In this document: piece by piece, positions 6,965 through 40,413 of the stretch
Position numbering within the stretch: the first letter of the stretch is position 1
How the letters are laid out: each line of letters begins with the position of its first letter
NCBI GenBank assembly: GCA_041663425.1
Contig: JBAYMS010000006.1
Span: 1 to 56,798, forward strand
From: Candidatus Omnitrophota bacterium
Lineage (GTDB): Bacteria > Omnitrophota > Gorgyraeia > 2-01-FULL-45-10
Length of the DNA: 56,798 nucleotides
Reading direction: 5' to 3'
Position numbers and translations under genes: made by a program
Notes under the pieces: model-generated
What the model was told of the DNA's origin: nothing
The model's input: only the letters and a program-made list of their open reading frames with translations
Database searches by the model: none

Positions 6965-8271
6965 CCGACCTTTTTTCTTAAAGAGGCGGGAAGTATTTTT
7001 AATGCCTGCCTGTATTTCGCCACAGTTCTTCGTTTTATAATAATGCCTTCCTTGTTTAGTGCCGTCTCGATCTCGCAGTCTTTTAATGGGTTGGAAAGAT
7101 CTTCGTGCTTTACGAACTCTGCTATCCTGTTTTTTACTGAAGCTTTGGAAGTAAATTCTCCGGTTTCATTTTTTATTCCGTGGCTTAAAAGACTGTTGAT
7201 GGATACGACTTTATCGTTTAGTTGTATGTATTTGTTTGATATCGCGCGGCTTACTGTGGACGGATGAAAATTGAGAGCCTTGGCTACGTCATTTAAAGTA
7301 AGCGTTTTTGGAGGTTCTTTTTTGCATAATGCATCTTTCTGGAAATCCAATATATATTTTGCGACCTTGCATATCGTGTCTTCACGCCGTCTCAGATTAT
7401 CGAGTAAACCTTTGGCGAGGTCTATATTTTCTTTAAGAAATTTTCTTGTTTCGTCATCCTTAACTATATTCATTTCGTTCTCATAGGGATTGTAAATTTT
7501 AAGACGGGGAGTGCAGTCTCTGTTAAGTTCCAGCAATACGCTGGATCTGCCTACTTTTGCCACCAATTCCGGGGTTATGGCCTGGGAAGTTTTACTCAAT
7601 ATCGTACTGGCCGGCCTTGGATTGAGCTTCCTTATATATGATATGGCTTCACGCACCTTATCGGTGCTTGCGCCCAAAGAATTTGCTATCTTATCAACGT
7701 CGTTTCTGGCTACATCAGTAAGGAAGCCTGCCGCTATGGCGTGTTCCAGGGAGTTTTCCTTACCCATTCTCTCTAATTGGAGCATAAGGCACTCTCGTAT
7801 GTCTCTGGCGCCTATTCCCGCCGGTTCCATCTTCTGGATGATCGATACGCATTCTTCCACATCTTCGGGATCAACGGATAGGTCCGCTGCGACCGTTTCT
7901 GACTCTACTGATATATAGCCATTTTCATCCATTTCGAATATCAGATATTCAGCTATCTTAAGGGTATCTTTTTCAAGTCCGTATATTTTAAGCTGCGATA
8001 TCAGGTTGAAGCGGGGGTTTTCAGGTTGAGCGGTGCCGCCAATAGAGCTTTCCATGTCGCTGTCAACTTTGATGCCGGCAGACTTTCTATATTTTTCGGA
8101 TTTTTTTTCATCGATCAATTTTTGAAGGAATGGGTTCTTGGTCAGAATAGATTCAATATATTCAGACAGGTCTTTAGAAGACATACCCAAAAGGTTTATG
8201 GATTGCCTCATCTGGGGGGTGAGGACCATTTTTTGGAGAAATCTATGTTGGTGATTAAATCTGTGTCTCAT
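6961..8271 (-). CDS. rpoN: RNA polymerase sigma-54 factor
   Basis: 436 aa. Glutamine/leucine-rich N-terminal region I (LVLTPQMRQSINLL), core-binding domain, C-terminal HTH and RpoN box (RRTVAKYRQAL). Confidence 0.95.
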   Translation of the reverse strand: MRHRFNHQHRFLQKMVLTPQMRQSINLLGMSSKDLSEYIESILTKNPFLQKLIDEKKSEKYRKSAGIKVDSDMESSIGGTAQPENPRFNLISQLKIYGLEKDTLKIAEYLIFEMDENGYISVESETVAADLSVDPEDVEECVSIIQKMEPAGIGARDIRECLMLQLERMGKENSLEHAIAAGFLTDVARNDVDKIANSLGASTDKVREAISYIRKLNPRPASTILSKTSQAITPELVAKVGRSSVLLELNRDCTPRLKIYNPYENEMNIVKDDETRKFLKENIDLAKGLLDNLRRREDTICKVAKYILDFQKDALCKKEPPKTLTLNDVAKALNFHPSTVSRAISNKYIQLNDKVVSINSLLSHGIKNETGEFTSKASVKNRIAEFVKHEDLSNPLKDCEIETALNKEGIIIKRRTVAKYRQALKILPASLRKKVG

Positions 8272-8412: not shown

Positions 8413-8428
8413 TGGCACAGATATTGCT
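8413..8428 (+). promoter_or_regulatory. Sigma-54 promoter (-24/-12): TGGCAC-agata-TTGCT
   Basis: Exact match to the TGGCAC-N5-TTGCW consensus, 85 nt upstream of ATG 8513. Predicted TSS near 8439. Confidence 0.8.
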
Positions 8429-8512: not shown

Positions 8513-9505
8513 ATGGATGGACGACTGACAATCACAGAAGTTGCGAAATATGTTGGCGTAACGCCGAGAACCATCATGAGGTGGGAAAAGGGCGGCAAGA
8601 TAAAGCGTTCAAGACGCGATTGGCGCGGATGGAGGTTTTATCTTAAGGAAGATGTCGAAGACATCAGGAAGTTCTACGAAAGTACATATGAATACAATGA
8701 AGGAGATAAGGTGATCATGAATATGACTAAAGAGACTCTGGTTTCAGTGATCCTGGCGGCTTTTTTGGCCTTACCTATATTATGCGGCACAAGCTATGCC
8801 CAGACACCTGCTGCCAAGGCAAAAAGCGTTAATGAGACGCAATCAACGGTGGATATCAACCTTAACACATTGCCTGCTGTAAAGGCGCCTGAGTTTACAC
8901 CTGTGGAAGCGATGAAGTATACTCTCGGGCCTGATGATGTTATTGAAGTCGAGGTGAGAAGGCATCCTGAGTTTAGCGGGCAATATCCTGTCAATTCGGA
9001 AGGTAGAATAGAATATAAGTTTATAGGGGATATGATTGTTTCCGGTCTTACCAAAGCCCAACTGCAGGAAAAATTGGTAGCGACGCTGTCTGAATATATC
9101 ATAGAGCCCGACGTTAACGTTAGAATAGTTTCGTATTTAAGTAAAGTTTTCTATGTTGTTGGGGAAGTTAATAATCCCGGCAAATTTTATATGAAAGGTA
9201 ACAGTATTACGGTGCGCGAAGCATTGGTGCAGGCCGGTCTTCCGGTAACCGGTTCGGCGGCTATGAGAAAATGCCGTCTGGTAACACCTGACGCTAAGGG
9301 CCGAAGCAACTATAAATATATAAATGCGTATGCTCTGTTGTATGGGGGCGATCTAAGGCAGAATGTAGAAATGAAACCGGGCGACGTCCTTTACGTGCCT
9401 TCTACTGTAATATCCAAGATAATTCGCGTTGTAAGTCCTGTGACTAATGCTGTAAGTTCCGCTGCCGGTTCAGCTGCCGCTGGTGCAAGCGTAGTGGCGC
9501 TGTAA
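8513..9505 (+). CDS. MerR-type HTH fused in frame to a polysaccharide export protein (Wza / Poly_export + SLBB)
   Basis: - aa 4-55 form a MerR-like HTH (LTITEVAKYVGVTPRTIMRWEKGGKI...WRGWRFYLKEDVEDIRKF).
- aa 69-97 form a signal peptide (MNMTKETLVSVILAAFLALPILCGTSYAQ).
- Poly_export/SLBB motifs follow (GPDDVIEVEV, GRIEYKFIGDMIVSGLT, VVGEVNNPG).
- Strong RBS AGGAGG before 8513. Internal GTG 8711 / ATG 8717 follow AGGAG (8701-8705). Confidence 0.8.
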   Translation: MDGRLTITEVAKYVGVTPRTIMRWEKGGKIKRSRRDWRGWRFYLKEDVEDIRKFYESTYEYNEGDKVIMNMTKETLVSVILAAFLALPILCGTSYAQTPAAKAKSVNETQSTVDINLNTLPAVKAPEFTPVEAMKYTLGPDDVIEVEVRRHPEFSGQYPVNSEGRIEYKFIGDMIVSGLTKAQLQEKLVATLSEYIIEPDVNVRIVSYLSKVFYVVGEVNNPGKFYMKGNSITVREALVQAGLPVTGSAAMRKCRLVTPDAKGRSNYKYINAYALLYGGDLRQNVEMKPGDVLYVPSTVISKIIRVVSPVTNAVSSAAGSAAAGASVVAL

Positions 9506-30899: not shown

Positions 30900-32044
30900 C
30901 TTTTATATTCTGGATATCAGCTGTAGCTTTATTTTATACGTATCTGGGATACCCTTTATTTTTAGCGCTGCATGCAAAGCTTTCCGCAGATAAAGTGAAA
31001 AAAGATATGGCGCACAAACCGAATATCTCCGTAATAATTTCCGCATACAATGAAGAGGATCATATAGAGCAGAAGATAGAGAATCTGCTGCGGTCTGACT
31101 ATCCTCCGGAAAAATTTGAAATCCTGGTAGGATCTGACGGCTCGAACGATAAGACGGCTGAGATATTGTCGCATCTTTCAAAAAATAAGGTTAAGGTATT
31201 TGTATTTCCTGATAGAAGGGGGAAGCCCAGCGTTCTCAATGACCTGGTCGGGAAAGCTGGCGGCGATGTCCTTGTATTCTGTGATGCCCGCCAGTTATTT
31301 GATAAAAATGCTATATCCCAACTGGCCGCGAATTTTGCTGACGATAAAGTCGGGTGCGTCAGCGGAGAACTGGTATTTGAAAAAAGCGATTCAGATAACG
31401 GTGTTTCGGAGGGGGTAGGTTTTTACTGGAATTATGAAAAGATGATGAGAAAGAGCGAAAGTGCCGTGCATTCAATGATAGGCGCTACCGGTGCTATTTA
31501 TGCTATAAGAAGAAAACTATATACACCGCTCCCCAAAGACACGATCCTGGATGATGTGGCTACACCTTTGGCGATAGTCAGGCAAGGTTATCGCTCTGTA
31601 TGGGACGAAGAGGCCAGAGCTTATGATAAGCCTGCATTTACACCCGAAGAAGAATACAGGAGAAAGGTGAGGACTCTGGCTGGCAATTATCAGGCTTTTT
31701 CATTATTCAGGGATCTGCTCGTGCCCTGCAAAAGTCCGGTAGCTATATATTTTATATCTCATAAATTATTACGAGTGCTTGCGCCATTTTTTATGATATC
31801 GTTGTTTGTGAGCAATCTTTTTATATCGGGTCAATATCCTTACTCATTCTTTTTTATATGTCAGATAATATTTTATGTGCTTGCCATTTTGGGCAGCTTC
31901 ACTTATGAAACCAAAAGAAAACGTCTTATTGCAAAGATAGCGTCTACGGCTTACATGTTCTGTCTTTTAAATTTTACGGCCATAGCCGGCCTCCACAGAT
32001 TTATTACCGGAAAACAGAATATAGCATGGGAGAAATCAAAGTGA
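30896..32044 (+). CDS. Integral-membrane family 2 glycosyltransferase (synthase-like)
   Basis: N-terminal TM helix, GT-A core (ISVIISAYNEE...GSDGSNDKT...FCDARQ...GATGAIYAIRR) and 3-4 C-terminal TM helices. ATGA overlap with the upstream gene. Confidence 0.85.
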   Translation: MTFIFWISAVALFYTYLGYPLFLALHAKLSADKVKKDMAHKPNISVIISAYNEEDHIEQKIENLLRSDYPPEKFEILVGSDGSNDKTAEILSHLSKNKVKVFVFPDRRGKPSVLNDLVGKAGGDVLVFCDARQLFDKNAISQLAANFADDKVGCVSGELVFEKSDSDNGVSEGVGFYWNYEKMMRKSESAVHSMIGATGAIYAIRRKLYTPLPKDTILDDVATPLAIVRQGYRSVWDEEARAYDKPAFTPEEEYRRKVRTLAGNYQAFSLFRDLLVPCKSPVAIYFISHKLLRVLAPFFMISLFVSNLFISGQYPYSFFFICQIIFYVLAILGSFTYETKRKRLIAKIASTAYMFCLLNFTAIAGLHRFITGKQNIAWEKSK

Positions 32045-32874
32045 ATATAAAAAGAATGATACAGATTGCGTCTTGTTCGGTGCTTTTGGTGATCGCATAC
32101 ATTCCCACCATACTATGGATGGCTGACAGATGGTTCGCGAAGGAATCATATTACGGCCACGGTATCCTGATCCCTATAGTCTCTTTGGTGATAGTGTGGC
32201 AGAGGTGGGAGATGCTCAAAAAAATAAAGCAGGTAAGCGCGATGTCAGGTCTATGGATAGTCGCCGCATGCTTAGTGATCAACATAGTATGTGCGTCGCT
32301 CAAGATCTATTTTGTTTCAGGCTTCTCTCTCGTAATCGCTATCTACGGAATGATACTATTCTTCTTTGGCAAGGAGATGGTGCGCAATCTGACTTTCCCG
32401 ATATTTTTTCTTCTTGCGATGATACCGCTTCCGCTGGTTATCATAGGCAATCTGACCGTAAAACTTAAGCTATTCGCGGCTCAGGCTGCTACTTTTGTGC
32501 TTAATAAAGTAGGCTTTCCCTGTGTTAGAGACGGTAGTGTTATAGTGATGCCGCATTCACACACGATAGTGGAAGCGCCCTGCAGCGGGCTGCGTTCGCT
32601 GATATCTCTACTGACGCTCGGACTGTTATTTTCTTATATAGTGAAAACAACTTTTGTTAAAAAAGCAGTCATATTCGTATCTTCGGCCCCAATTGCTATA
32701 GTGTCAAATATTGTAAGGATAGTTCTGCTGGCCGCTGTGAATGACCTGTATGGCGAAAAGGTTGCGATGGGGTTTTTCCATGACTTCACCGGGTTCTTAG
32801 TTTTTGCGATAGCTTTTGCCGGATTGTATACTGTATCAAATCTTCTGGAGCCTAAAAAGAATGCCTATCAATAA
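32026..32874 (+). CDS. Exosortase (EpsH/Xrt family transpeptidase)
   Basis: 282 aa, polytopic. The conserved Cys (EAPCSGLRSLISLL), Asn/Arg (SNIVRIVLLA) and His (FFHDFTGF) motifs are all present. Confidence 0.92.
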   Translation: MGEIKVNIKRMIQIASCSVLLVIAYIPTILWMADRWFAKESYYGHGILIPIVSLVIVWQRWEMLKKIKQVSAMSGLWIVAACLVINIVCASLKIYFVSGFSLVIAIYGMILFFFGKEMVRNLTFPIFFLLAMIPLPLVIIGNLTVKLKLFAAQAATFVLNKVGFPCVRDGSVIVMPHSHTIVEAPCSGLRSLISLLTLGLLFSYIVKTTFVKKAVIFVSSAPIAIVSNIVRIVLLAAVNDLYGEKVAMGFFHDFTGFLVFAIAFAGLYTVSNLLEPKKNAYQ

Positions 32875-33496
32875 AAATACAATCGGATTTTCGGCGATCG
32901 TTATATTGTTGGCCGTAACGAGTTTTTTCTCGCTTAATCTTTATCTGCGTGAAAAGGTTGCGCATGATAAACTGAATATCTCTGCCTTTCCGCAGAACGT
33001 GCTTGGCTGGCAGGGGAGAGACCTTCTCATAACTGAGAAAGAATACTCTATCCTGGAAACCAGAAACCTGATATCGCGTGAGTATAAAAATGCGGCTGGC
33101 GAAAGATTGTTTTTGTTCATAATCTATTCCGAGACCAATAGAGCCGTATTTCATCCGCCCGAAGTATGCCTTATTGGAAGCGGTATAGAGATAGTGGATA
33201 AAAAAACAGAAAAAGTAAAAGTTAACAAACAGACTTTTGCTGTTAATAAATTATATATTGAAAAGAAAAACTCTCTTAAAGAATTGGTCCTCTACTGCTA
33301 CAGGGCAGGGGGGATGTATACCGATAATTTTTTTCTTCAACAGGCTTATCTTGCGCTTCACCAGATATTTGGTAAACAAATTCCCGGAGCGACTATACGC
33401 GTATCTATGTCTTTAAAAGGCAGCGAAGAGGCTACTCTGCCTAGCGTAGAAGAATTTCTCTCCGAGACCATCATCATATTAAATAAGCTCTCTTAG
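32861..33496 (+). CDS. EpsI-family exosortase-associated protein
   Basis: N-terminal anchor plus the FHPPEVCLIGSG motif typical of EpsI. ATG 32861 overlaps the exosortase stop by 14 nt; the ORF track starts at 32816. Confidence 0.8.
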   Translation: MPINKNTIGFSAIVILLAVTSFFSLNLYLREKVAHDKLNISAFPQNVLGWQGRDLLITEKEYSILETRNLISREYKNAAGERLFLFIIYSETNRAVFHPPEVCLIGSGIEIVDKKTEKVKVNKQTFAVNKLYIEKKNSLKELVLYCYRAGGMYTDNFFLQQAYLALHQIFGKQIPGATIRVSMSLKGSEEATLPSVEEFLSETIIILNKLS

Positions 33497-33560
33497 ACTG
33501 TCCGCTAACCTCAACACCTATCTTAAGTAATGTCCACTTTTCTCCAATCGACTATCAATG

Positions 33561-33590
33561 ACTGTCATAGTTTGTCATAGATGAACATAG
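33561..33590 (+). repeat. Three tandem 10-bp repeats (actgtcatag / tttgtcatag / atgaacatag)
   Basis: Helical-phase (10 bp) repeats of a TGTCATAG-like core, 89-118 bp upstream of the second sigma-54 promoter. Confidence 0.6.
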
Positions 33591-33678
33591 TCTACAACAA
33601 ATATTATTTCATAACTCCTTTATTATCATACAGTTATAATCTGTATTTTTAGCATTAAAATTTCTGCAAATACCCGTT

Positions 33679-33694
33679 TGGCACGCTTATTGCT
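33679..33694 (+). promoter_or_regulatory. Sigma-54 promoter (-24/-12): TGGCAC-gctta-TTGCT
   Basis: Exact TGGCAC-N5-TTGC match. It shares the extended TTGCTTAT with the promoter at 8413. Predicted TSS near 33705, 3 nt before ATG 33708. Confidence 0.8.
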
Positions 33695-33707
33695 TATCTA
33701 AGTAGTA

Positions 33708-34565
33708 ATGAAAAATTTTATAGACACACTAAAACTTATCGTAAAGCAAATACGGAAAGACTTTGATGTCTACATGGTTATTCGTAGATACAATAAGTCT
33801 CCGCGCAACACTCATTACATGATGGTTTTTGCTTTTGTTGTCCTATCGTTATTTTCACTAGTGAGTATTTGCTATGCGCAAGCACAGGGGAAAATCCCAT
33901 TCGTTGTGCCGGAGCCTACCACTACAGTGATTGTATCTACCGGTATTGTAGGTTGGATAGTCCGATTTGCACGTAAACGGTTCCAGGAATTTAAAAGAGT
34001 TCTGGATATAATAGTTGCTTCTTTAGGCGTAGTAATGCTGTCGCCGGTTATCGGGTTTACAGCTCTTTTTATTAAGCTCGTATCTCCTGGTCCGGCATTT
34101 TTTAAGCAGGAGAGAGTAGGATTGGAAGGTAGGTTGTTCTATATATATAAACTTCGCACTATGAGGATAGATGCGGAAAAAGATACGGGCCCTATGTGGG
34201 CACGTGAGAATGACCCCAGGCTCATAAAATATGGCAGTGTTATACGTAAGCTGCATCTTGACGAATTGCCGCAGCTATACAATGTTGTCAGGGGCGATAT
34301 GAGCATAGTAGGTCCAAGACCGGAAAGGCCTGTGTTTGTTGAAAAGCTTTGCGAAGAGATACTTGACTATAAAAAACGTATTCAGGTAAGGCCAGGCATA
34401 ACCGGCCTTGCTCAGGTTCGTCATAAATACGATGAGACGATAGCCGATGTAAGAAAAAAAGTTAAATATGACCTTCTCTATATAAGAGAGATGTGTTTTT
34501 TGGTTGACCTAAGAATACTTGCGCGGACAGTGATAGTATCAGCGAGAGGAAAAGGGGCGCACTAA
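33708..34565 (+). CDS. Priming sugar transferase (bacterial sugar transferase / WbaP-PglC family) with an unusual N-terminal extension
   Basis: Catalytic domain from about aa 93 (KRVLDIIVASLGVVMLSPV...SPGPAFFKQERVG...IYKLRTM...DELPQLYNVVRGDMSIVGPRPE). aa 38-91 carry a signal-peptide-like helix followed by a VPEP-TM-RKR motif. Confidence 0.88.
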   Translation: MKNFIDTLKLIVKQIRKDFDVYMVIRRYNKSPRNTHYMMVFAFVVLSLFSLVSICYAQAQGKIPFVVPEPTTTVIVSTGIVGWIVRFARKRFQEFKRVLDIIVASLGVVMLSPVIGFTALFIKLVSPGPAFFKQERVGLEGRLFYIYKLRTMRIDAEKDTGPMWARENDPRLIKYGSVIRKLHLDELPQLYNVVRGDMSIVGPRPERPVFVEKLCEEILDYKKRIQVRPGITGLAQVRHKYDETIADVRKKVKYDLLYIREMCFLVDLRILARTVIVSARGKGAH

Positions 34566-34566
34566 A

Positions 34567-35307
34567 ATGAAAAAAAATTTGCTTGCGGCAGTTTGCTTTA
34601 TTATTCTTGCAGTGTTCGCAGTTTTTAGTCCAGCGAATGCTCTTGCGGCACTAACCGTAAACGGATATCTGGACGACTGGGATGTTACGCCCGGTGCGTA
34701 TGGAGCTTCTGACTGGAATCCTTCCCCTGGCGTACAATATGCGGTAGAAGATCAATATAAAGATTATCTTGTCCCAGGATACGGCGGCCAGAAATTTGAT
34801 GCTGAAGCCATATATTTTCAGAGAAGTGGAGGCAAGGTATATATTGCGATAGTTACAGGGCATCCTTCCACCGGTTGGGCAAGTGAGACGCCGGGTGATA
34901 TATATTTCAAACTGGCAGATGGGACGGTGTATGGCCTTAAGACAACCGGAGTTGATGCCGGAATGTTTTATATGAACCCTTCATGGAACAAGACTCCTTT
35001 GTGGGGAGGGACTATCATGACAACTATGATAGATGGCACGGGGACAGAGATCGGATTGACCGATTTTATATACGAGCATACCTATTACGGCACCGGATTA
35101 GCAAACGATCACTGGGTCATGGAAATAGCTATACCAGAATGGTATTTTGGGGATGCTGCTAATGGGGAGGGCGCTATACGCTGGACGGAAACGTGTGGAA
35201 ACGATTATATAGACCTGGCAGTTACACATACACCGGAACCGGCGACCATGTCGCTTTTAGGTTTAGGTTTGTTCGGACTTCTTGGTTTGAAACGCAGGAG
35301 TAAATAA
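34567..35307 (+). CDS. PEP-CTERM sorting-domain protein 1
   Basis: Signal peptide and C-terminal TPEPATMSLLGLGLFGLLGLKRRSK (35230-35304). N-terminal VNGYLDDWD pattern. Confidence 0.92.
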   Translation: MKKNLLAAVCFIILAVFAVFSPANALAALTVNGYLDDWDVTPGAYGASDWNPSPGVQYAVEDQYKDYLVPGYGGQKFDAEAIYFQRSGGKVYIAIVTGHPSTGWASETPGDIYFKLADGTVYGLKTTGVDAGMFYMNPSWNKTPLWGGTIMTTMIDGTGTEIGLTDFIYEHTYYGTGLANDHWVMEIAIPEWYFGDAANGEGAIRWTETCGNDYIDLAVTHTPEPATMSLLGLGLFGLLGLKRRSK

Positions 35308-35993
35308 TGAAAAAGATCACTTGTTTATTTTTATTGGCACTGGTTTTGTTTTCCTCTGCTAATGCACAAGCGTGCACTACTTACGCTCCGAAGTTATGGC
35401 TGAGCACCGATCCGAATAATTTTGCAGCAGGTGGTGTGGGGTATGTGGATTCTGCCTCTGGATGGCAAAATGAAAGTTACTGCACAAAAAATATGCCGTT
35501 CACAATGTATTTGTATAATGACGGCAACGCTTATGCTTACGATGTAGGATTGATAGTTGCTGTGCATAAAGGTGAAACCAGCGGAAGCATAACTATCGCT
35601 GACGCATACGGCAAAGAACAGACGTTTGATTATTCTGATTTCACGCTCACCAATCCATATAAAGGTGAAGACCACGATATAGATGGTGTTTATGCAGTTT
35701 TGAAGCCAAGTAAATATACATATTTATCGACAGATAGCACCGGCAATGAAGATATAACGAGTAAGGCTAAGAGCTGGACAACATTCACTGTCAAGAGCTC
35801 GTCGTTTTCGGAAGTTCATTTTGACGCTGTCGGTAAGTATGGATGTAAAAGTTACTACACCTCTCCTGCAAATGATGTTGATTGGTGTCAGGATGCAGGT
35901 CCTACGACTCCTGAGCCCGCTACGATGTCTTTAGTTGGATTGGGGTTGTGTGGATTGTTGAAGCTGAGAAATAGAAAAAAACGCAGTATTTAA
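35307..35993 (+). CDS. PEP-CTERM sorting-domain protein 2
   Basis: Signal peptide and C-terminal TPEPATMSLVGLGLCGLLKLRNRKKRSI (35907-35990). TAATG overlap with the preceding gene. Confidence 0.92.
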   Translation: MKKITCLFLLALVLFSSANAQACTTYAPKLWLSTDPNNFAAGGVGYVDSASGWQNESYCTKNMPFTMYLYNDGNAYAYDVGLIVAVHKGETSGSITIADAYGKEQTFDYSDFTLTNPYKGEDHDIDGVYAVLKPSKYTYLSTDSTGNEDITSKAKSWTTFTVKSSSFSEVHFDAVGKYGCKSYYTSPANDVDWCQDAGPTTPEPATMSLVGLGLCGLLKLRNRKKRSI

Positions 35994-36041: not shown

Positions 36042-36689
36042 TTGAAGAAGATAATCGTGTTAGTAGCTGCAGTGCTGATTATGTCAGCTGGCAGTGCGTT
36101 TGCAGTTCCTGTAATCGATGGAAGCATGGGTGTCGGAGAATGGACATCAGGATTGCTTATAAGCGCAGCGGATGTTAATGAATCTGGGATTCCAGATGCA
36201 TATGATATCAGCAGCCTAAAGATTCTATCGGCACGAAGCGGAGGAGCAAGCGATGGGTTGTATATGATGTGGGAGCTTTATGGAACCCCGACATTTGTAA
36301 CGTTGGATCCCATAAAAAAGATGCCCGTAGTATACTTAACCGCTTTAGACATGAACCAGGATGGGGATTACGAGGATGCGGATGATAGAATAATAGAATA
36401 CCGCGCAACTGGTTTGGTCATTACTGACGGAACCGGTGCAGTAGTTTCTGGATCAGCGTTTGCTGCCATGGGTTCGGTCGTAGAGTTCTATATTCCAACC
36501 GGGATGGTATCTAGCACACCAGACACTAGCTTTGCTGGTTTTATATTGCTAGATAATGGTGGTAACCCAGAGGATGATCAGCTTCCGGATGACGGAACAT
36601 TTAAAACGCCGGAACCTGGAAGCGTAGCGCTTCTTGGAATAGGCTTGATCGGGTTAGTCGGCAAGCTTAGAAGGAAGTTCACGGCATAG
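36042..36689 (+). CDS. PEP-CTERM sorting-domain protein 3
   Basis: TTG start 8 nt after AGGAGG. Signal peptide and C-terminal TPEPGSVALLGIGLIGLVGKLRRKFTA (36606-36686). N-terminal IDGSMGVGEW pattern. Confidence 0.9.
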   Translation: MKKIIVLVAAVLIMSAGSAFAVPVIDGSMGVGEWTSGLLISAADVNESGIPDAYDISSLKILSARSGGASDGLYMMWELYGTPTFVTLDPIKKMPVVYLTALDMNQDGDYEDADDRIIEYRATGLVITDGTGAVVSGSAFAAMGSVVEFYIPTGMVSSTPDTSFAGFILLDNGGNPEDDQLPDDGTFKTPEPGSVALLGIGLIGLVGKLRRKFTA

Positions 36690-36916: not shown

Positions 36917-37771
36917 ATGAAATATAATATTAAGACAAATTGGGTCAAAACTTTTGAACTGATCTTGCAAAATCGGATCGTTTTAGCCCCTTTTATAATT
37001 ATAGGACTTATAGAGTGCTTGGTTCTTGAGCTTGCCTATTTTTCTGCCAGGGCACCGCTTTCCGGATTATTCGGTCCTATCATAAAAAAATTCTTCGGTG
37101 AAGCGTATCTTCATTATCCTGCAAGTATTTCAATTCTTCCGAAGTTATTTTATTATGGCCAGACTTTTGTTTATGTATTCATCAGCGTATTCCTTGCCGC
37201 TGTAGCCGTCCAAATATTTGTAAATATTCGCGCAGGCCTTCCGGTGATAGTGAAAGCTATAGTGAAAAATACGGCCAAAAGATATCTCACTTTTGTCGGT
37301 TATGGCCTGATATATGTGACATTAATGGCGGTTTTGGAAAAAGCGGAGAGCGTTGTTTTCTTTAAAGGCATGAGATTTATATCGCGTCACATGTTTAAAA
37401 TATCTCCCGGGCTCTATTCGGCAGGGACGGTAAGCCTGTTATTCGTTACATTTGTTTTTATTCAGACTCTTTTCATATCAACGATACCTCTTATTATTCT
37501 TGATAAAAAATCACTTCTTAAAGCTATTGCAGGCAGTGTGGTGAAGAGCGTTATGAATTTCATAAAAGTATTTTGTCTGATACTTGTTCCGCTGTCTTTT
37601 TATCTTCCGTCTCTTATAATGAGTTCATTTCTGTCTCCCATAATGGACAAGACGTTTCCGGAAGTAGGATTCTATATAACACTTCTTACTATAGTTACGG
37701 CGGTATTTGTCGATTGCTTTATATTGATGGTCATGACCCAATTTTTGCTGGATACAAAAAAGGCTAAATGA
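36917..37771 (+). CDS. Polytopic membrane protein, unknown family
   Basis: 284 aa, about 6 TM helices, stop-free ORF whose end forms an ATGA overlap with the start of the downstream gene. Confidence 0.6.
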   Translation: MKYNIKTNWVKTFELILQNRIVLAPFIIIGLIECLVLELAYFSARAPLSGLFGPIIKKFFGEAYLHYPASISILPKLFYYGQTFVYVFISVFLAAVAVQIFVNIRAGLPVIVKAIVKNTAKRYLTFVGYGLIYVTLMAVLEKAESVVFFKGMRFISRHMFKISPGLYSAGTVSLLFVTFVFIQTLFISTIPLIILDKKSLLKAIAGSVVKSVMNFIKVFCLILVPLSFYLPSLIMSSFLSPIMDKTFPEVGFYITLLTIVTAVFVDCFILMVMTQFLLDTKKAK

Positions 37772-38622
37772 AAAAGATAATAGTAGCTTTAACGGTAATT
37801 CTTATAGCGGTATATGCGACCCTGGCATTTTTAGGTTCGGGTGGTGAGTATGCCTCAGAAAAGCTCCTCTATAAGATAATGAAGGGTGCGTCAGCCATCT
37901 CGCTAAATCCGGATGCTGCTCCGCCGGCTCAGCTTGCCGCCGTAGAGCGTGACCTCAAAACACTGATCAGTAAATATCCGGGCACAAGATCTGCCAAGAT
38001 CGCGCATATAGCCTTGATGGAATTTTACGTTGCTAATAAAAAATATAGTGAAGCTGCTGCCTTCGCAGCAACAATAGAAAAGACCTATGCCGCCGATGCC
38101 GAACTGCTGAGCACTGCCCAATTTTTACTCGGGACAGCTTACGAGAAGCAGGGGAGCTGGAGTAAGGCTTTGGCTGAATTTAAAATACTGGAAGAAAAAT
38201 ATCCACATACGCAGCTTGGAATGCAGATCCCTATATATATAGGAAAGTATTATGAGGCCAAGGGGAAGGATGCTGAGGCCAGGAGCGCTTATAAAGAAGC
38301 GGTTAATTTTTATAGCAATATGGAAAAAGAGTATTCAAATAAAGTTTTGGGGTATACCGCATCTGTCTTATTGATCCAGTCGTATCTGAACATGAATGAT
38401 TATGAAGCCGCTGGAAATATGGTGGACAAAACGCTGCACAAGTATGCGTCCAGGCTGTCATTTATGCAGCTTTTACCATATGTTGAAAATATATACATAA
38501 AAAAATTGAATCAGCCTGAAAAAGCAATCGAGCTCTATAAATATGTTATGGATAAAATAAAAGATCCTCGGATGATAAAGTTGCTTAACAAAAAAATCGA
38601 GGAAATAAAGGCTAAAAAGTAA
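37768..38622 (+). CDS. Membrane-anchored TPR-repeat protein
   Basis: N-terminal TM helix followed by TPR-like helical repeats (AQFLLGTAYEKQGSWSKALAEFKILEEKYP...). Confidence 0.7.
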   Translation: MKKIIVALTVILIAVYATLAFLGSGGEYASEKLLYKIMKGASAISLNPDAAPPAQLAAVERDLKTLISKYPGTRSAKIAHIALMEFYVANKKYSEAAAFAATIEKTYAADAELLSTAQFLLGTAYEKQGSWSKALAEFKILEEKYPHTQLGMQIPIYIGKYYEAKGKDAEARSAYKEAVNFYSNMEKEYSNKVLGYTASVLLIQSYLNMNDYEAAGNMVDKTLHKYASRLSFMQLLPYVENIYIKKLNQPEKAIELYKYVMDKIKDPRMIKLLNKKIEEIKAKK

Positions 38623-38675: not shown

Positions 38676-38990
38676 ATGATAACATTAGACAAGCAAGATA
38701 AAGGTGTGAGGACTCGCAAGATTAGGGGTCGGGCGACGAAGTATAAGAAATTAGCGACAATGGGCGAGATCAGCAAAGGAATAATAAATGAATTATATAG
38801 CCCCATCGACGCAACCAATCGCTTCATAAACCTGGCTTTACAGTCAATAGGTGAAAATCCTCAGGGTAGGCAGTTTCTTCTGGAATCTAAAGAAGGAATA
38901 AGAAAAACATCGCTTCTTCTGAATAAGCTGAATAATTACGCAAAGAAGATGGAAGAAGAAATACGTAAGATGCCCGATACCAGCAAATAA
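38676..38990 (+). CDS. Stand-alone degenerate HisKA (DHp)-like protein lacking the phospho-acceptor His and any ATPase domain
   Basis: KLATMGEISKGIINELYSPIDATNRFINLAL aligns by eye to the kinase H-box pattern kLAslGelaagiAHEirNPL, with His replaced by Asn. The protein is only 104 aa. Confidence 0.55.
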   Translation: MITLDKQDKGVRTRKIRGRATKYKKLATMGEISKGIINELYSPIDATNRFINLALQSIGENPQGRQFLLESKEGIRKTSLLLNKLNNYAKKMEEEIRKMPDTSK

Positions 38991-39021: not shown

Positions 39022-40413
39022 ATGATAAAAACCGATATGACAAAATACCGGATCCTTGTTTTAAATAGCGATAAGTTGCTGCAGAAGTCTCTTTATGAGC
39101 TGCTGTCGCGTTCAGGCTATACAGTAGATATAACCGATTCAATAGACGAGTCTATCGCCTGTTTGGAAGAAAAATCCTACCACCTTGTGCTTACCGATAT
39201 CGACACCAATGAAGGTGTCGAGCTATTGAAGATAATAAAGGGCCAGTCATATCCTGCGGAAGTTCTTGTTTTGACGTCCTACGGCAATATTGATAATGCG
39301 CTGGATAGTGTGGAGATGGGCGCGTTTGATTATCTTGTAAAACCCGTCGAAGATGCAAAGGTTTTCTCTGCGATAGAAAAGGCTCTTGCAAACAAGGCGC
39401 CGGCAGAAGGCGAGCCGGTTATTCAGAAAATAAATCCTAAGGAAGAAACTTTCTACGGCCTTGTAGGTACGATGAAAGACATATATTCACTCATAGAAAG
39501 AATCTCAAATTCAAAAGCCACCATACTCCTGCGGGGCGAGAGCGGGACGGGTAAAAGGGTTATAGCTCGCGCAATACATCAGGCAGATAAGAAGCGCAGG
39601 GATAAGCCATTTATAGAAATGTCATGCGGTGCTCTTCCTCGAGAGATCATTGAAAGTGAGTTATTTGGTCATACGAAAGGCTCTTTCACTGGAGCTATAA
39701 ATGACCGTAAGGGCAGGTTTGAGCTTGCGCATGGCGGCACCATACTTCTTGATGATATAGATTCTTTCTCGCTCGACCTCCAAGTGAAGTTGTTAAGGGT
39801 GCTGCAGCAAAAAGAATTTGAAAGGGTGGGGGATCATAAAACGATGAAGGTAGATGTCCGTATAATCGCATCTACTAACCAGGACCTGGAGAAGATAGTC
39901 GCTGAAAAAAAGTTCAGGGAAGACCTTTATTATCGTCTCAATGTCATATCTATAAATATACCTCCCCTGAGAAAAAGGAAGCAGGATCTTGTGCTTTTGG
40001 TTAACCATTTTATAAATCTTTATGCTAAGGAAAATCATAAAAAGATGGATGGCGTATCCCAGGATGCTTTATCTTTGCTGACAAGCTATGATTGGCCGGG
40101 AAATATCCGAGAGCTCGAGAATATTATCGAGAGAGCGATAATACTCGATATAGATAACGTCATTAAGATGGACGACCTGCCGGAAATTATTACAAAGGCA
40201 GCAAGGCCTGCGGAGCCTGTTTTTGATGCTCAGAACCTGCAGGACACGTCCTCTCTCAGGGATGCGCTTAAAGACCCCGAGAAGGTTTATATATTAAAGA
40301 TACTAGAGGAAGTAGGCTGGAATAAAAAGAAAGCCGCCATAAAACTGGGCGTTAACAGAACGACTCTTTATAATAAATTACGTAAGTATAATCTTGTTCA
40401 GAATCAAAAATAA
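39022..40413 (+). CDS. Sigma-54-dependent transcriptional activator (receiver + AAA+ + Fis-type HTH; PrsR-like position in a PEP-CTERM locus)
   Basis: Walker A GESGTGK, GAFTGA-type loop GSFTGA, Walker B ILLDDI, WPGNIRELEN, C-terminal HTH NKKKAAIKLGVNRTTLYNKLRKY. The N-terminal receiver keeps Asp (LVLTDID), Thr and Lys, but reads LNSD where DD is expected. Confidence 0.93.
   Translation: MIKTDMTKYRILVLNSDKLLQKSLYELLSRSGYTVDITDSIDESIACLEEKSYHLVLTDIDTNEGVELLKIIKGQSYPAEVLVLTSYGNIDNALDSVEMGAFDYLVKPVEDAKVFSAIEKALANKAPAEGEPVIQKINPKEETFYGLVGTMKDIYSLIERISNSKATILLRGESGTGKRVIARAIHQADKKRRDKPFIEMSCGALPREIIESELFGHTKGSFTGAINDRKGRFELAHGGTILLDDIDSFSLDLQVKLLRVLQQKEFERVGDHKTMKVDVRIIASTNQDLEKIVAEKKFREDLYYRLNVISINIPPLRKRKQDLVLLVNHFINLYAKENHKKMDGVSQDALSLLTSYDWPGNIRELENIIERAIILDIDNVIKMDDLPEIITKAARPAEPVFDAQNLQDTSSLRDALKDPEKVYILKILEEVGWNKKKAAIKLGVNRTTLYNKLRKYNLVQNQK

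Follow-up and report, generated by a model that had tools for sequence, protein, structure and literature searches.

PEP-CTERM sorting signals lie near the C-terminus "virtually without exception", on otherwise non-enzymatic secreted proteins (Haft et al. 2006, PMC1569441). A locus of Candidatus Omnitrophota bacterium raises the question of what such a signal would do ahead of the catalytic domain of an enzyme that starts glycan synthesis. The locus lies on contig JBAYMS010000006.1 of assembly GCA_041663425.1, of which positions 1 to 56,798 of the forward strand were analysed (hereafter the window, 56,798 nucleotides in all), and the gene in question, an open reading frame (ORF) at 33708..34565 on the + strand, encodes a PglC-type phosphoglycosyl transferase (PGT) of 285 aa. 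A first-pass annotation, made from the sequence of this stretch, had noticed ahead of the transferase domain a signal-peptide-like helix followed by a PEP motif, a hydrophobic span and a basic cluster, and had compared this arrangement with the C-termini of the three cargo genes immediately downstream.

A PEP-CTERM-type signal precedes the catalytic domain of the priming transferase

A Pfam scan of the PGT placed the Bac_transf domain (PF02397) at aa 96–277 with 212 bits against a threshold of 27; no other PF02397 gene occurs in the 56.8-kb window. The re-entrant membrane helix and the monotopic catalytic domain together occupy 33990..34538 (+ strand; aa 95–277), and chain positions 10–182 of the PglC structures 8e37/8g1n aligned to aa 95–276 of the PGT with an E value of 3.6e-34. 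The D185–E186 dyad was invariant in an alignment of 106 homologs, and the catalytic domain also carries a PRPERP motif. With the PglC alignment starting at aa 95 and the catalytic unit near aa 86–95, the residues ahead of about aa 86 are additional to the minimal enzyme. The extension reported at first pass is real. Ahead of the catalytic unit stand, in this order, a signal-peptide-like helix, a 9-residue linker, VPEP, a 15-residue hydrophobic span and RFARKRF. The sequence and coordinates originally given for these elements were all verified, with M38 at 33819, MMVFAFVVLSLFSLVSICYAQAQG corresponding to aa 38–61, and VPEPTTTVIVSTGIVGWIVRFARKR to aa 67–91 (33906–33980).

The PEP-CTERM-type module spans 33906..33983 (+ strand; aa 67–92) and consists of VPEP, the 15-residue span TTTVIVSTGIVGWIV and the basic cluster RFARKRF; the basic region RFARKRFQEFKR holds six K/R. 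When scored against the PEP-CTERM hidden Markov model (HMM) TIGR02595, a check proposed in the first-pass annotation, aa 67–86 passed narrowly, with 16.8 bits versus the curated cutoff of 16. The PF07589 model gave 13.8 bits on the whole protein and 18.9 bits on a 59-aa fragment, both below the gathering score of 20.7. The window protein alone makes a borderline case, and it is conservation among related sequences that settles the reality of the module. The span was also considered as a homolog of the WbaP-type N-terminal helix, a candidate that was rejected because the alignment of large PGT models and structures does not begin before aa 88–95.

A protein search recovered more than 100 homologs with 59–87% identity, mostly of 258 aa; all related sequences are metagenomic, with taxon labels as given by the submitters of the metagenome-assembled genomes (MAGs), and Candidatus Omnitrophota/Omnitrophica is the label of the few homologs with a named source. 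In all of them [C/S]-Y-A-Q was followed, after some 10 variable residues, by (A/V)-P-E-P-(G/S/T), and a hydrophobic span then led to R-F-A-R-K-R-F-x-E-F-K-R. In the alignment of the 106 homologs, which were 59–86% identical, P68 and E69 were invariant (106/106) and P70 was present in 101/106, counts that, the homologs being phylogenetically related, are to be read together with the 82 members of a second family described below as conservation within two clades and not as 188 independent events. Conservation of the RFARKRF cluster reached about 90% or more, and 15 residues separated it from the PEP in 101/106. When the homologs were scanned singly, PF07589 matched 96/106 at E≤1 (best E 4e-6) and TIGR02595 matched 97/106 at the same threshold, whereas PF07589 matched none of 60 control PGTs lacking the module, which were drawn from the genome scan described below. 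The precomputed PF07589 annotation was present for 12 of 120 listed homologs.

The module was then aligned, profile against profile, with 11 cargo tails of the same loci, and the two matched column for column from PEP through the basic cluster (hhalign 96.2%, E 2.4e-9). The likeness to the downstream cargo C-termini was upheld by this comparison, and the PEP and the basic cluster proved to be kept in orthologs. Judged from these alignments, aa 67–92 are a genuine, selectively maintained PEP-CTERM-type signal, and the match is far from chance. The module lies at aa 67–92 of 285 with the whole PGT domain behind it and not at the C-terminus, so that strictly it does not qualify as a PEP-CTERM domain.

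The module persists in relatives with different sequences ahead of it

An exhaustive profile search with the module alone over 1.84 billion representative proteins returned 98 matches. Among the relatives (loci and proteins are numbered with the prefixes L and P, respectively), the form represented by the window, form A, comprises a putative signal peptide, a linker of about 10 aa, the PEP module and the PGT. In form B, an ectodomain of about 20–200 aa stands between the signal peptide and the PEP module (P0139, P0147, P0151, P0199 and L010–L012). The extreme of form B is P0143, a protein of 458 aa encoded at 8001–9377 of L007, in which a full cargo domain is joined to the PGT at the PEP. The P0143 ectodomain is homologous to the window cargo encoded at 35307–35993 (BLASTP E 9e-6), and in L007 the PGT gene now stands behind two free cargo genes, an arrangement that suggests recombination between PEP-coding segments. 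This cargo::PGT fusion indicates that the region ahead of the PEP is treated as periplasmic and cargo-like.

Form C has no signal peptide, and the protein begins with M-P-E-P. In L089, the TAA of a small ORF is followed immediately by ATG CCA GAA CCA, the M-P-E-P start of the PGT. In a Planctomycetota-type family found with a Brocadiia-labelled query, an MPEP start was observed in 102/120 homologs, of which the sole named member comes from a Planctomycetota MAG. P2-E3-P4 was invariant in the 82-member alignment of this M-PEP family, and PF07589 matched 74/82 members. The loci of this family also pair the PGT with a PEP-CTERM cargo gene; an exosortase–EpsI fusion lies directly upstream in L092 and L014, and no exosortase lies within 7–10 kb in L091 and L013. 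As far as these architectures tell, the signal peptide is dispensable in relatives, a point overlooked at first pass.

Internal PEP-CTERM units were also observed in proteins of another kind, single ORFs of 4–10 tandem units that we term PEP-CTERM polyproteins. Members include P0124 (MCA9247495.1, Planctomycetales MAG, 2500 aa), P0128 (L090 3705–9815, 2036 aa), P0129, P0131, P0132 and others. Each unit comprises a signal-peptide-like segment, a domain of about 200–350 aa and PEP, a transmembrane span and RRRR, and the next unit continues without stop or Met. The units of P0128 have roughly a third to half of their residues in common with unit 1, and the ORF occurs in several independent assemblies. 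This layout suggests that internal PEP-CTERM sites are used elsewhere; no description of such polyproteins was found in the literature.

The module accompanies PEP-CTERM cargo genes

A scan of species-representative genomes, in which the PGT core was located by a DE-x-PQ anchor, yielded 80 related PGT loci. The strict module was found in 9/80 loci, and two further loci had degenerate heads (AEP and PDP); the MAG labels of these module-bearing loci include Omnitrophota, Planctomycetia, Brocadiia, Brocadiaceae and Phycisphaerae, as well as two doubtful bin labels. A PEP-CTERM cargo gene was present in 9/9 strict-module loci versus 3/71 of the others (Fisher p 9e-10), and an exosortase lay within 7 kb in 5/9 versus 5/71 (p 1e-3). 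In the Gemmatimonadota loci L028, L034, L065 and L088, the PGT adjoins an exosortase and lacks the module, which argues that the module is lineage-specific and not general to exosortase-linked PGTs.

The order exosortase–EpsI, PGT and two to three cargo genes was the same in L001, L003, L005 and L008–L012, and in L007 (with EpsI at the upstream edge), L014, L089 and L092 the exosortase and/or EpsI lay upstream and the cargo downstream. In all module-bearing loci examined, cargo genes of the PEP-CTERM type stood immediately behind the PGT, and in most of them exosortase–EpsI stood immediately ahead of it. The PGT heads were also compared with cargo tails over 15 residues, and the identity was 0.42 with the tails of the own locus and 0.36 with those of other loci (permutation p 7e-4). 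Examples of such head and tail pairs are IPEPGTLLLFGTGLLGMIG and IPEPGSMLLFGTGLIGLIG in L007, and PEPATLTLLGTG and PEPATLTLLGLG in L013.

The N-terminus comprises a fused small ORF, a signal-peptide-like helix and a variable linker

The signal-peptide-like hydrophobic helix lies at 33819..33878 (+ strand; aa 38–57) and ends in [C/S]-Y-A↓Q, consistent with the –3/–1 rule. Kyte-Doolittle windows above 1.6 begin at aa 35–45, and the preceding aa 24–38 are basic (+4). Y56 was found in 102/106 homologs, A57 in 105/106 and a small –3 residue in 103/106. The helix recognized in the first-pass annotation therefore stands, and the AQA cleavage site assigned there is replaced by the family-conserved [C/S]-Y-A↓Q after aa 57. 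A lipobox reading of L-C-Y-A was rejected, since 41/106 homologs have Ser, Ala, Val or Gly in place of the Cys; the pattern suits signal peptidase I. The linker that follows (33879..33905, + strand; aa 58–66) is polar, variable, weakly conserved and predicted to be periplasmic, and the distance from the conserved Y-A site to the PEP was 10 aa in 83/106 homologs, with a range of 8–19.

The first 37 aa, also overlooked earlier, are a conserved small ORF fused in frame (33708..33818, + strand), with the pattern MKKxxxxxxxxxxEIRKDIDIYLAIxRYxRxSR. The window, L005 and about 10 further homologs have it fused; it is a separate gene in L001 (7880–7996), L003 (7810–7995) and L089 (2336–2455), where its stop lies 0–5 nt before the PGT ATG; the separate ORF has 38–39 aa in L001 and L089 and was called as 61 aa in L003. 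Differences between loci numbered 61, 42 and 110 at the first, second and third codon positions, respectively, and this concentration at the third position indicates that the small ORF is coding. No Pfam match was found for it. AlphaFold2 (AF2) modelled its helix at aa 2–28 with a predicted local distance difference test score (pLDDT) of about 90 for aa 1–20 and about 75 for aa 21–30. Whether separate or fused, the small ORF constantly adjoins the Omnitrophota-type PGT on its 5′ side, and its product may serve the PGT as a small partner in the cytoplasm.

The automatic gene call (P0002, 247 aa) begins at M39 (33822) and wholly includes the PEP segment. A start at M38 or M39 would strip the helix of the basic n-region seen in the 258-aa relatives, and a start at 33708 or at M23 (33774) is thus the more likely.

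Predicted topology and a proposed docking onto the exosortase

The charges of the extension are +4 before helix 1, net 0 in the PEP loop and +5 after helix 2, and PglC-type re-entrant helices start from the cytoplasm. This charge distribution and the cytoplasmic start of the re-entrant helix would together place the PEP in the periplasm and the basic cluster in the cytoplasm, which is the PEP-CTERM geometry. In the predicted topology, aa 1–37 would lie in the cytoplasm, aa 38–57 would cross from inside to outside, aa 58–70 (linker and PEP) would be periplasmic, and aa 71–85 would return from outside to inside, leaving RFARKRF, the re-entrant helix and the catalytic domain at the cytoplasmic face. 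The AF2 model, with a mean pLDDT of 74.9, contains helices at aa 2–28, 35–56, 70–90 and 92–125, in agreement with this arrangement.

We propose that a PEP-CTERM-type signal has been grafted on the cytoplasmic N-terminus of the PGT and serves in exosortase docking or as a pseudo-substrate, a reading to which we assign a probability of roughly 0.5. The exosortase would bind the PEP head of the PGT as it binds a cargo tail, and the signal peptide and linker would merely bring the PEP to the periplasmic side and could be lost. Glycan priming on the polyprenyl phosphate carrier would then take place alongside the exosortase's processing of the three cargo proteins and in time with it; these proteins would be co-transcribed with the PGT from the same sigma-54 promoter. 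The PEP, the span and the basic cluster stay constant, while the sequence ahead of them varies between a complete cargo domain and a single Met, so release of a passenger is unlikely to be the conserved job. Docking is favoured over cleavage of the cargo type because the PEP persists in the M-PEP forms, where nothing precedes it to be released. We infer all three, namely the topology, the binding to the exosortase and the preference for docking over cleavage, from sequence.

Several observations weigh against this proposal. The HMM scores of the PGT itself are borderline, with TIGR02595 at 16.8 versus 16 bits and PF07589 below gathering. L013, L091, L019, L020 and L047 bear the module and have no exosortase within 7–10 kb. 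The AF2 model is poor precisely at aa 56–77, which are unstructured with pLDDT below 50. The co-variation of heads and cargo tails is modest and could reflect gene conversion instead of shared recognition. Finally, a head held in the substrate site of the exosortase would compete with cargo, and the advantage of such a tether is not obvious.

The signal may instead make the PGT a cleavable exosortase substrate, cut at or near the PEP, as has been proposed for cargo, so that the N-terminal piece is freed or transferred and the transmembrane span, RKR and PGT are left; the enzyme could be matured or activated in this way, or one gene could supply both cargo and enzyme. All three PEP-CTERM elements are present and TIGR02595 was passed, the full cargo domain ahead of the PEP in P0143 would be sensible if released, as would the ectodomains of about 20–200 aa in relatives, and ORFs with 4–10 internal PEP-CTERM units and a new signal peptide after each suggest internal processing elsewhere. 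In the family of the window, however, only about 10 variable residues would be left after signal peptidase, the M-PEP forms have nothing to release and yet keep the PEP invariant, and the span after the PEP (STGxxGW) and RFARKRF are far more conserved than a discarded remnant requires. Genuine cleavage is possible, especially in form B, although as the general account we consider it rather doubtful. The segment could also be an ordinary extra membrane anchor without an exosortase link, kept now only as a transmembrane helix, in which the PEP would be a helix cap at the interface and the arrangement a relic of an old fusion or gene conversion with a neighbouring PEP-CTERM tail. Extra N-terminal helices are common in PGT families, the score of the window PGT is under Pfam gathering, an exosortase is missing from the vicinity of some loci, and recombination could take place between adjacent PEP-coding segments, to which the P0143 fusion points. 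The invariance of P-E over 106 and 82 sequences of two divergent families, at a fixed spacing, nevertheless exceeds what a generic anchor needs; moreover, 0/60 other PGT anchors resemble PEP-CTERM, the module is tightly coupled to cargo genes (9/9 versus 3/71), and the PEP is kept at the extreme N-terminus after loss of the signal peptide. We therefore regard a plain anchor as unlikely.

A further possibility, which is speculative and which we also hold to be improbable, goes beyond docking and concerns the chemistry of the exosortase. With the PGT held as a stable partner through its PEP head, the exosortase could resolve its cargo intermediate onto the lipid-linked sugar made by the docked PGT, and the long-sought acceptor in the conjugation of PEP-CTERM proteins would then be the product of the PGT, or the M-PEP variant itself could be an acceptor or gate for transpeptidation. 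After Met removal, the PEP–transmembrane–basic segment of the M-PEP variant would mimic the leaving-group fragment of cargo, provided that cargo is cut just before the PEP. In either variant, a single physical machine would carry out both protein sorting and glycan priming. A last explanation, that the extension is untranslated and the true start lies downstream near the catalytic domain, draws on the M39 start of the gene caller, which is later than the first ATG, and on the lack of a strong Shine-Dalgarno sequence before 33708 or 33819. The called start nevertheless still spans the signal-peptide and PEP segment, and from M39 to aa 152, inside the catalytic domain, no in-frame ATG occurs except M71, within the extension. 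More than 100 homologs, all translated through the segment, conserve it at the amino-acid level, and the small ORF shows coding-type third-position variation. The objection of a downstream start, which had been raised at first pass, therefore fails, and an untranslated extension is scarcely credible.

Genomic neighbourhood of the transferase gene

The position of the gene was as first described, with the exosortase and EpsI directly upstream and the PGT first behind a conserved sigma-54 –24/–12 element. The exosortase gene (32026..32874, + strand) matched PF09721 with 212.6 bits and TIGR02602 with 161.8 bits versus a cutoff of 105.55, and scored below the cutoffs of all named subtypes (XrtA 168.5 versus 208; XrtD and XrtW about 177 versus 400 or more); by these scores, it may be an unnamed subtype specific to the PGT-headed cassette. 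The gene of the exosortase-associated EpsI (32816..33496, + strand) matched TIGR02914 with 76 bits versus 42.8 and PF11984 with 101 bits. Downstream of the PGT, three PEP-CTERM cargo genes (34567–35307, 35307–35993 and 36042–36689, + strand) each encode a signal peptide and a C-terminal PEP–transmembrane–basic tail; they exceed the PF07589 gathering score of 20.7, with 30.7, 28.3 and 26.3 bits, and match TIGR02595 as well. They are followed by genes for a multi-pass membrane protein of 284 aa without family match (36917–37771) and a TPR protein (37768–38622), an ORF of about 104 aa without family match (38676–38990) and a sigma-54 activator/response regulator (39022–40413). A PocR/GAF protein lies beyond the regulator, and the rest of the window encodes GT4/GT2 transferases, a Wzy-like protein and deacetylases.

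The succession of exosortase–EpsI, (small ORF), PGT, cargo, a membrane protein of about 274–293 aa and a TPR protein was also found in L001, L003, L005, L008 and L089, with a sigma-54 regulator further along the locus in all five (5/5). A multi-pass protein of about 274–293 aa without family match, and then a TPR protein, occurred in every related locus, and an ORF of about 100 aa without family match precedes the sigma-54 regulator in most Omnitrophota-type loci (the window, L001, L003 and L089). Going by gene order, the multi-pass, TPR and ~100-aa proteins are uncharacterised conserved members of the exosortase cassette.

The promoter ahead of the PGT is of the sigma-54 –24/–12 type (33679..33697, + strand; TGGCAC-N5-TTGCTTAT), and TGGCA and TGCTTAT were invariant in an intergenic alignment of five loci. 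Only two exact matches to the sigma-54 consensus occur in the window, at 33679–33694 and at 8413–8428; the second lies ahead of an ORF at 8513–9505 and possibly heads a polysaccharide operon. About 110 bp upstream of the –24 box, an element at 33560..33580 (+ strand), GACTGTCATAGTTTGTCAT, contains two TGTCAT repeats (TGTCAT-N4-TGTCAT), which form invariant columns of the same alignment and are a candidate site for an enhancer-binding protein. A CTCAACAC box at 33510–33517, about 165 bp upstream of the promoter, was likewise invariant across the five loci. The TGTCAT repeats and the CTCAACAC box are probably the binding site of the sigma-54 activator of the locus (39022–40413). An Rfam scan of 33400–34000 found no RNA family, so that the conservation of this upstream stretch is not accounted for by a riboswitch or leader RNA. 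From the –12 GC to the ATG of the small or fused ORF there are 11–14 nt in the window (33694–33710), L005 and L089, where the transcript would thus have next to no leader; in L001 and L003 the leader is longer and holds a ribosome-binding site, GGAAAG/GAGAGGAAAAG.

Relation to known systems and significance

The module shares with the PEP-CTERM/exosortase (EpsH) system (PMC1569441) the PEP, a span of about 14–15 residues and the basic cluster, and its locus shares the adjacent exosortase and EpsI, several cargo genes, an exopolysaccharide setting, and a sigma-54 activator and TPR protein nearby. It differs in that the signal is N-terminal or internal and is followed by a cytoplasmic enzyme of 195 aa, and in that it forms the first residues in the M-PEP relatives. 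Among PGTs, close comparisons are offered by TIGR03013 (EpsB_2, the XrtA/PEP-CTERM sugar transferase) and TIGR03025 (EPS_sugtrans), likewise PF02397 transferases that act in priming. TIGR03013 has a genetic association with exosortase systems, and the catalytic halves align well. The window PGT, however, scored 251.6 bits versus a cutoff of 393.35 for TIGR03013, over profile positions 252–442 of 443 only, and 283.8 bits versus 295.55 for TIGR03025, over positions 256–444 of 445 only, and is without the polytopic N-terminal half of about 250 aa of these families. Whereas TIGR03013 and TIGR03025 are tied to the exosortase by genomic association only, the window enzyme itself bears the sorting signal. 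With PglC (8e37, 8g1n) it has in common the minimal unit of re-entrant helix and cytoplasmic domain with the Asp-Glu dyad; PglC begins at about aa 86 of the window protein, which adds 85 residues comprising the small-ORF helix, the signal-peptide-like helix, the PEP and a true transmembrane span.

The exosortase has been proposed to conjugate the new C-terminus of cargo to an unidentified compound, possibly an amino-acid-modified sugar (PMC7468200; Haft et al. 2006, PMC1569441). Sortase with lipid II, and PorU of the T9SS (type IX secretion system) with the linking sugar of anionic lipopolysaccharide (A-LPS), similarly cut a C-terminal signal and join the cargo to a sugar-containing acceptor (PMC7468200). 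In those systems no sorting signal is known on a glycan-priming enzyme, and the likeness is one of analogy, not homology. A PGT docked at the exosortase would place a lipid-linked sugar where the conjugation compound is proposed to be.

The first-pass annotation knew of no internal PEP-CTERM signal in a priming glycosyltransferase, and its claim holds as far as the full-text literature searched goes, in which neither a PEP signal on a PGT nor docking between exosortase and PGT was found to be described. NCBIfam release 20 contains no model for the PEP-headed PGT architecture. A minority of members already carry precomputed annotations for both PF07589 and PF02397; databases thus display the architecture, which has apparently gone undiscussed.

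The chemistry that the exosortase performs on cargo, and its constant embedding in polysaccharide loci, are still unexplained twenty years on. A priming glycosyltransferase with the recognition signal of the exosortase gives the first hint, at the level of sequence, that the two are directly and physically linked, and the conservation of this signal in hundreds of Omnitrophota- and Planctomycetota-type sequences offers a concrete experimental handle. It also implies that "C-terminal" sorting signals would be usable at N-terminal or internal positions, which bears on the annotation of such signals. In these bacteria, the conserved arrangement may physically tie the priming of sugar chains to protein sorting.

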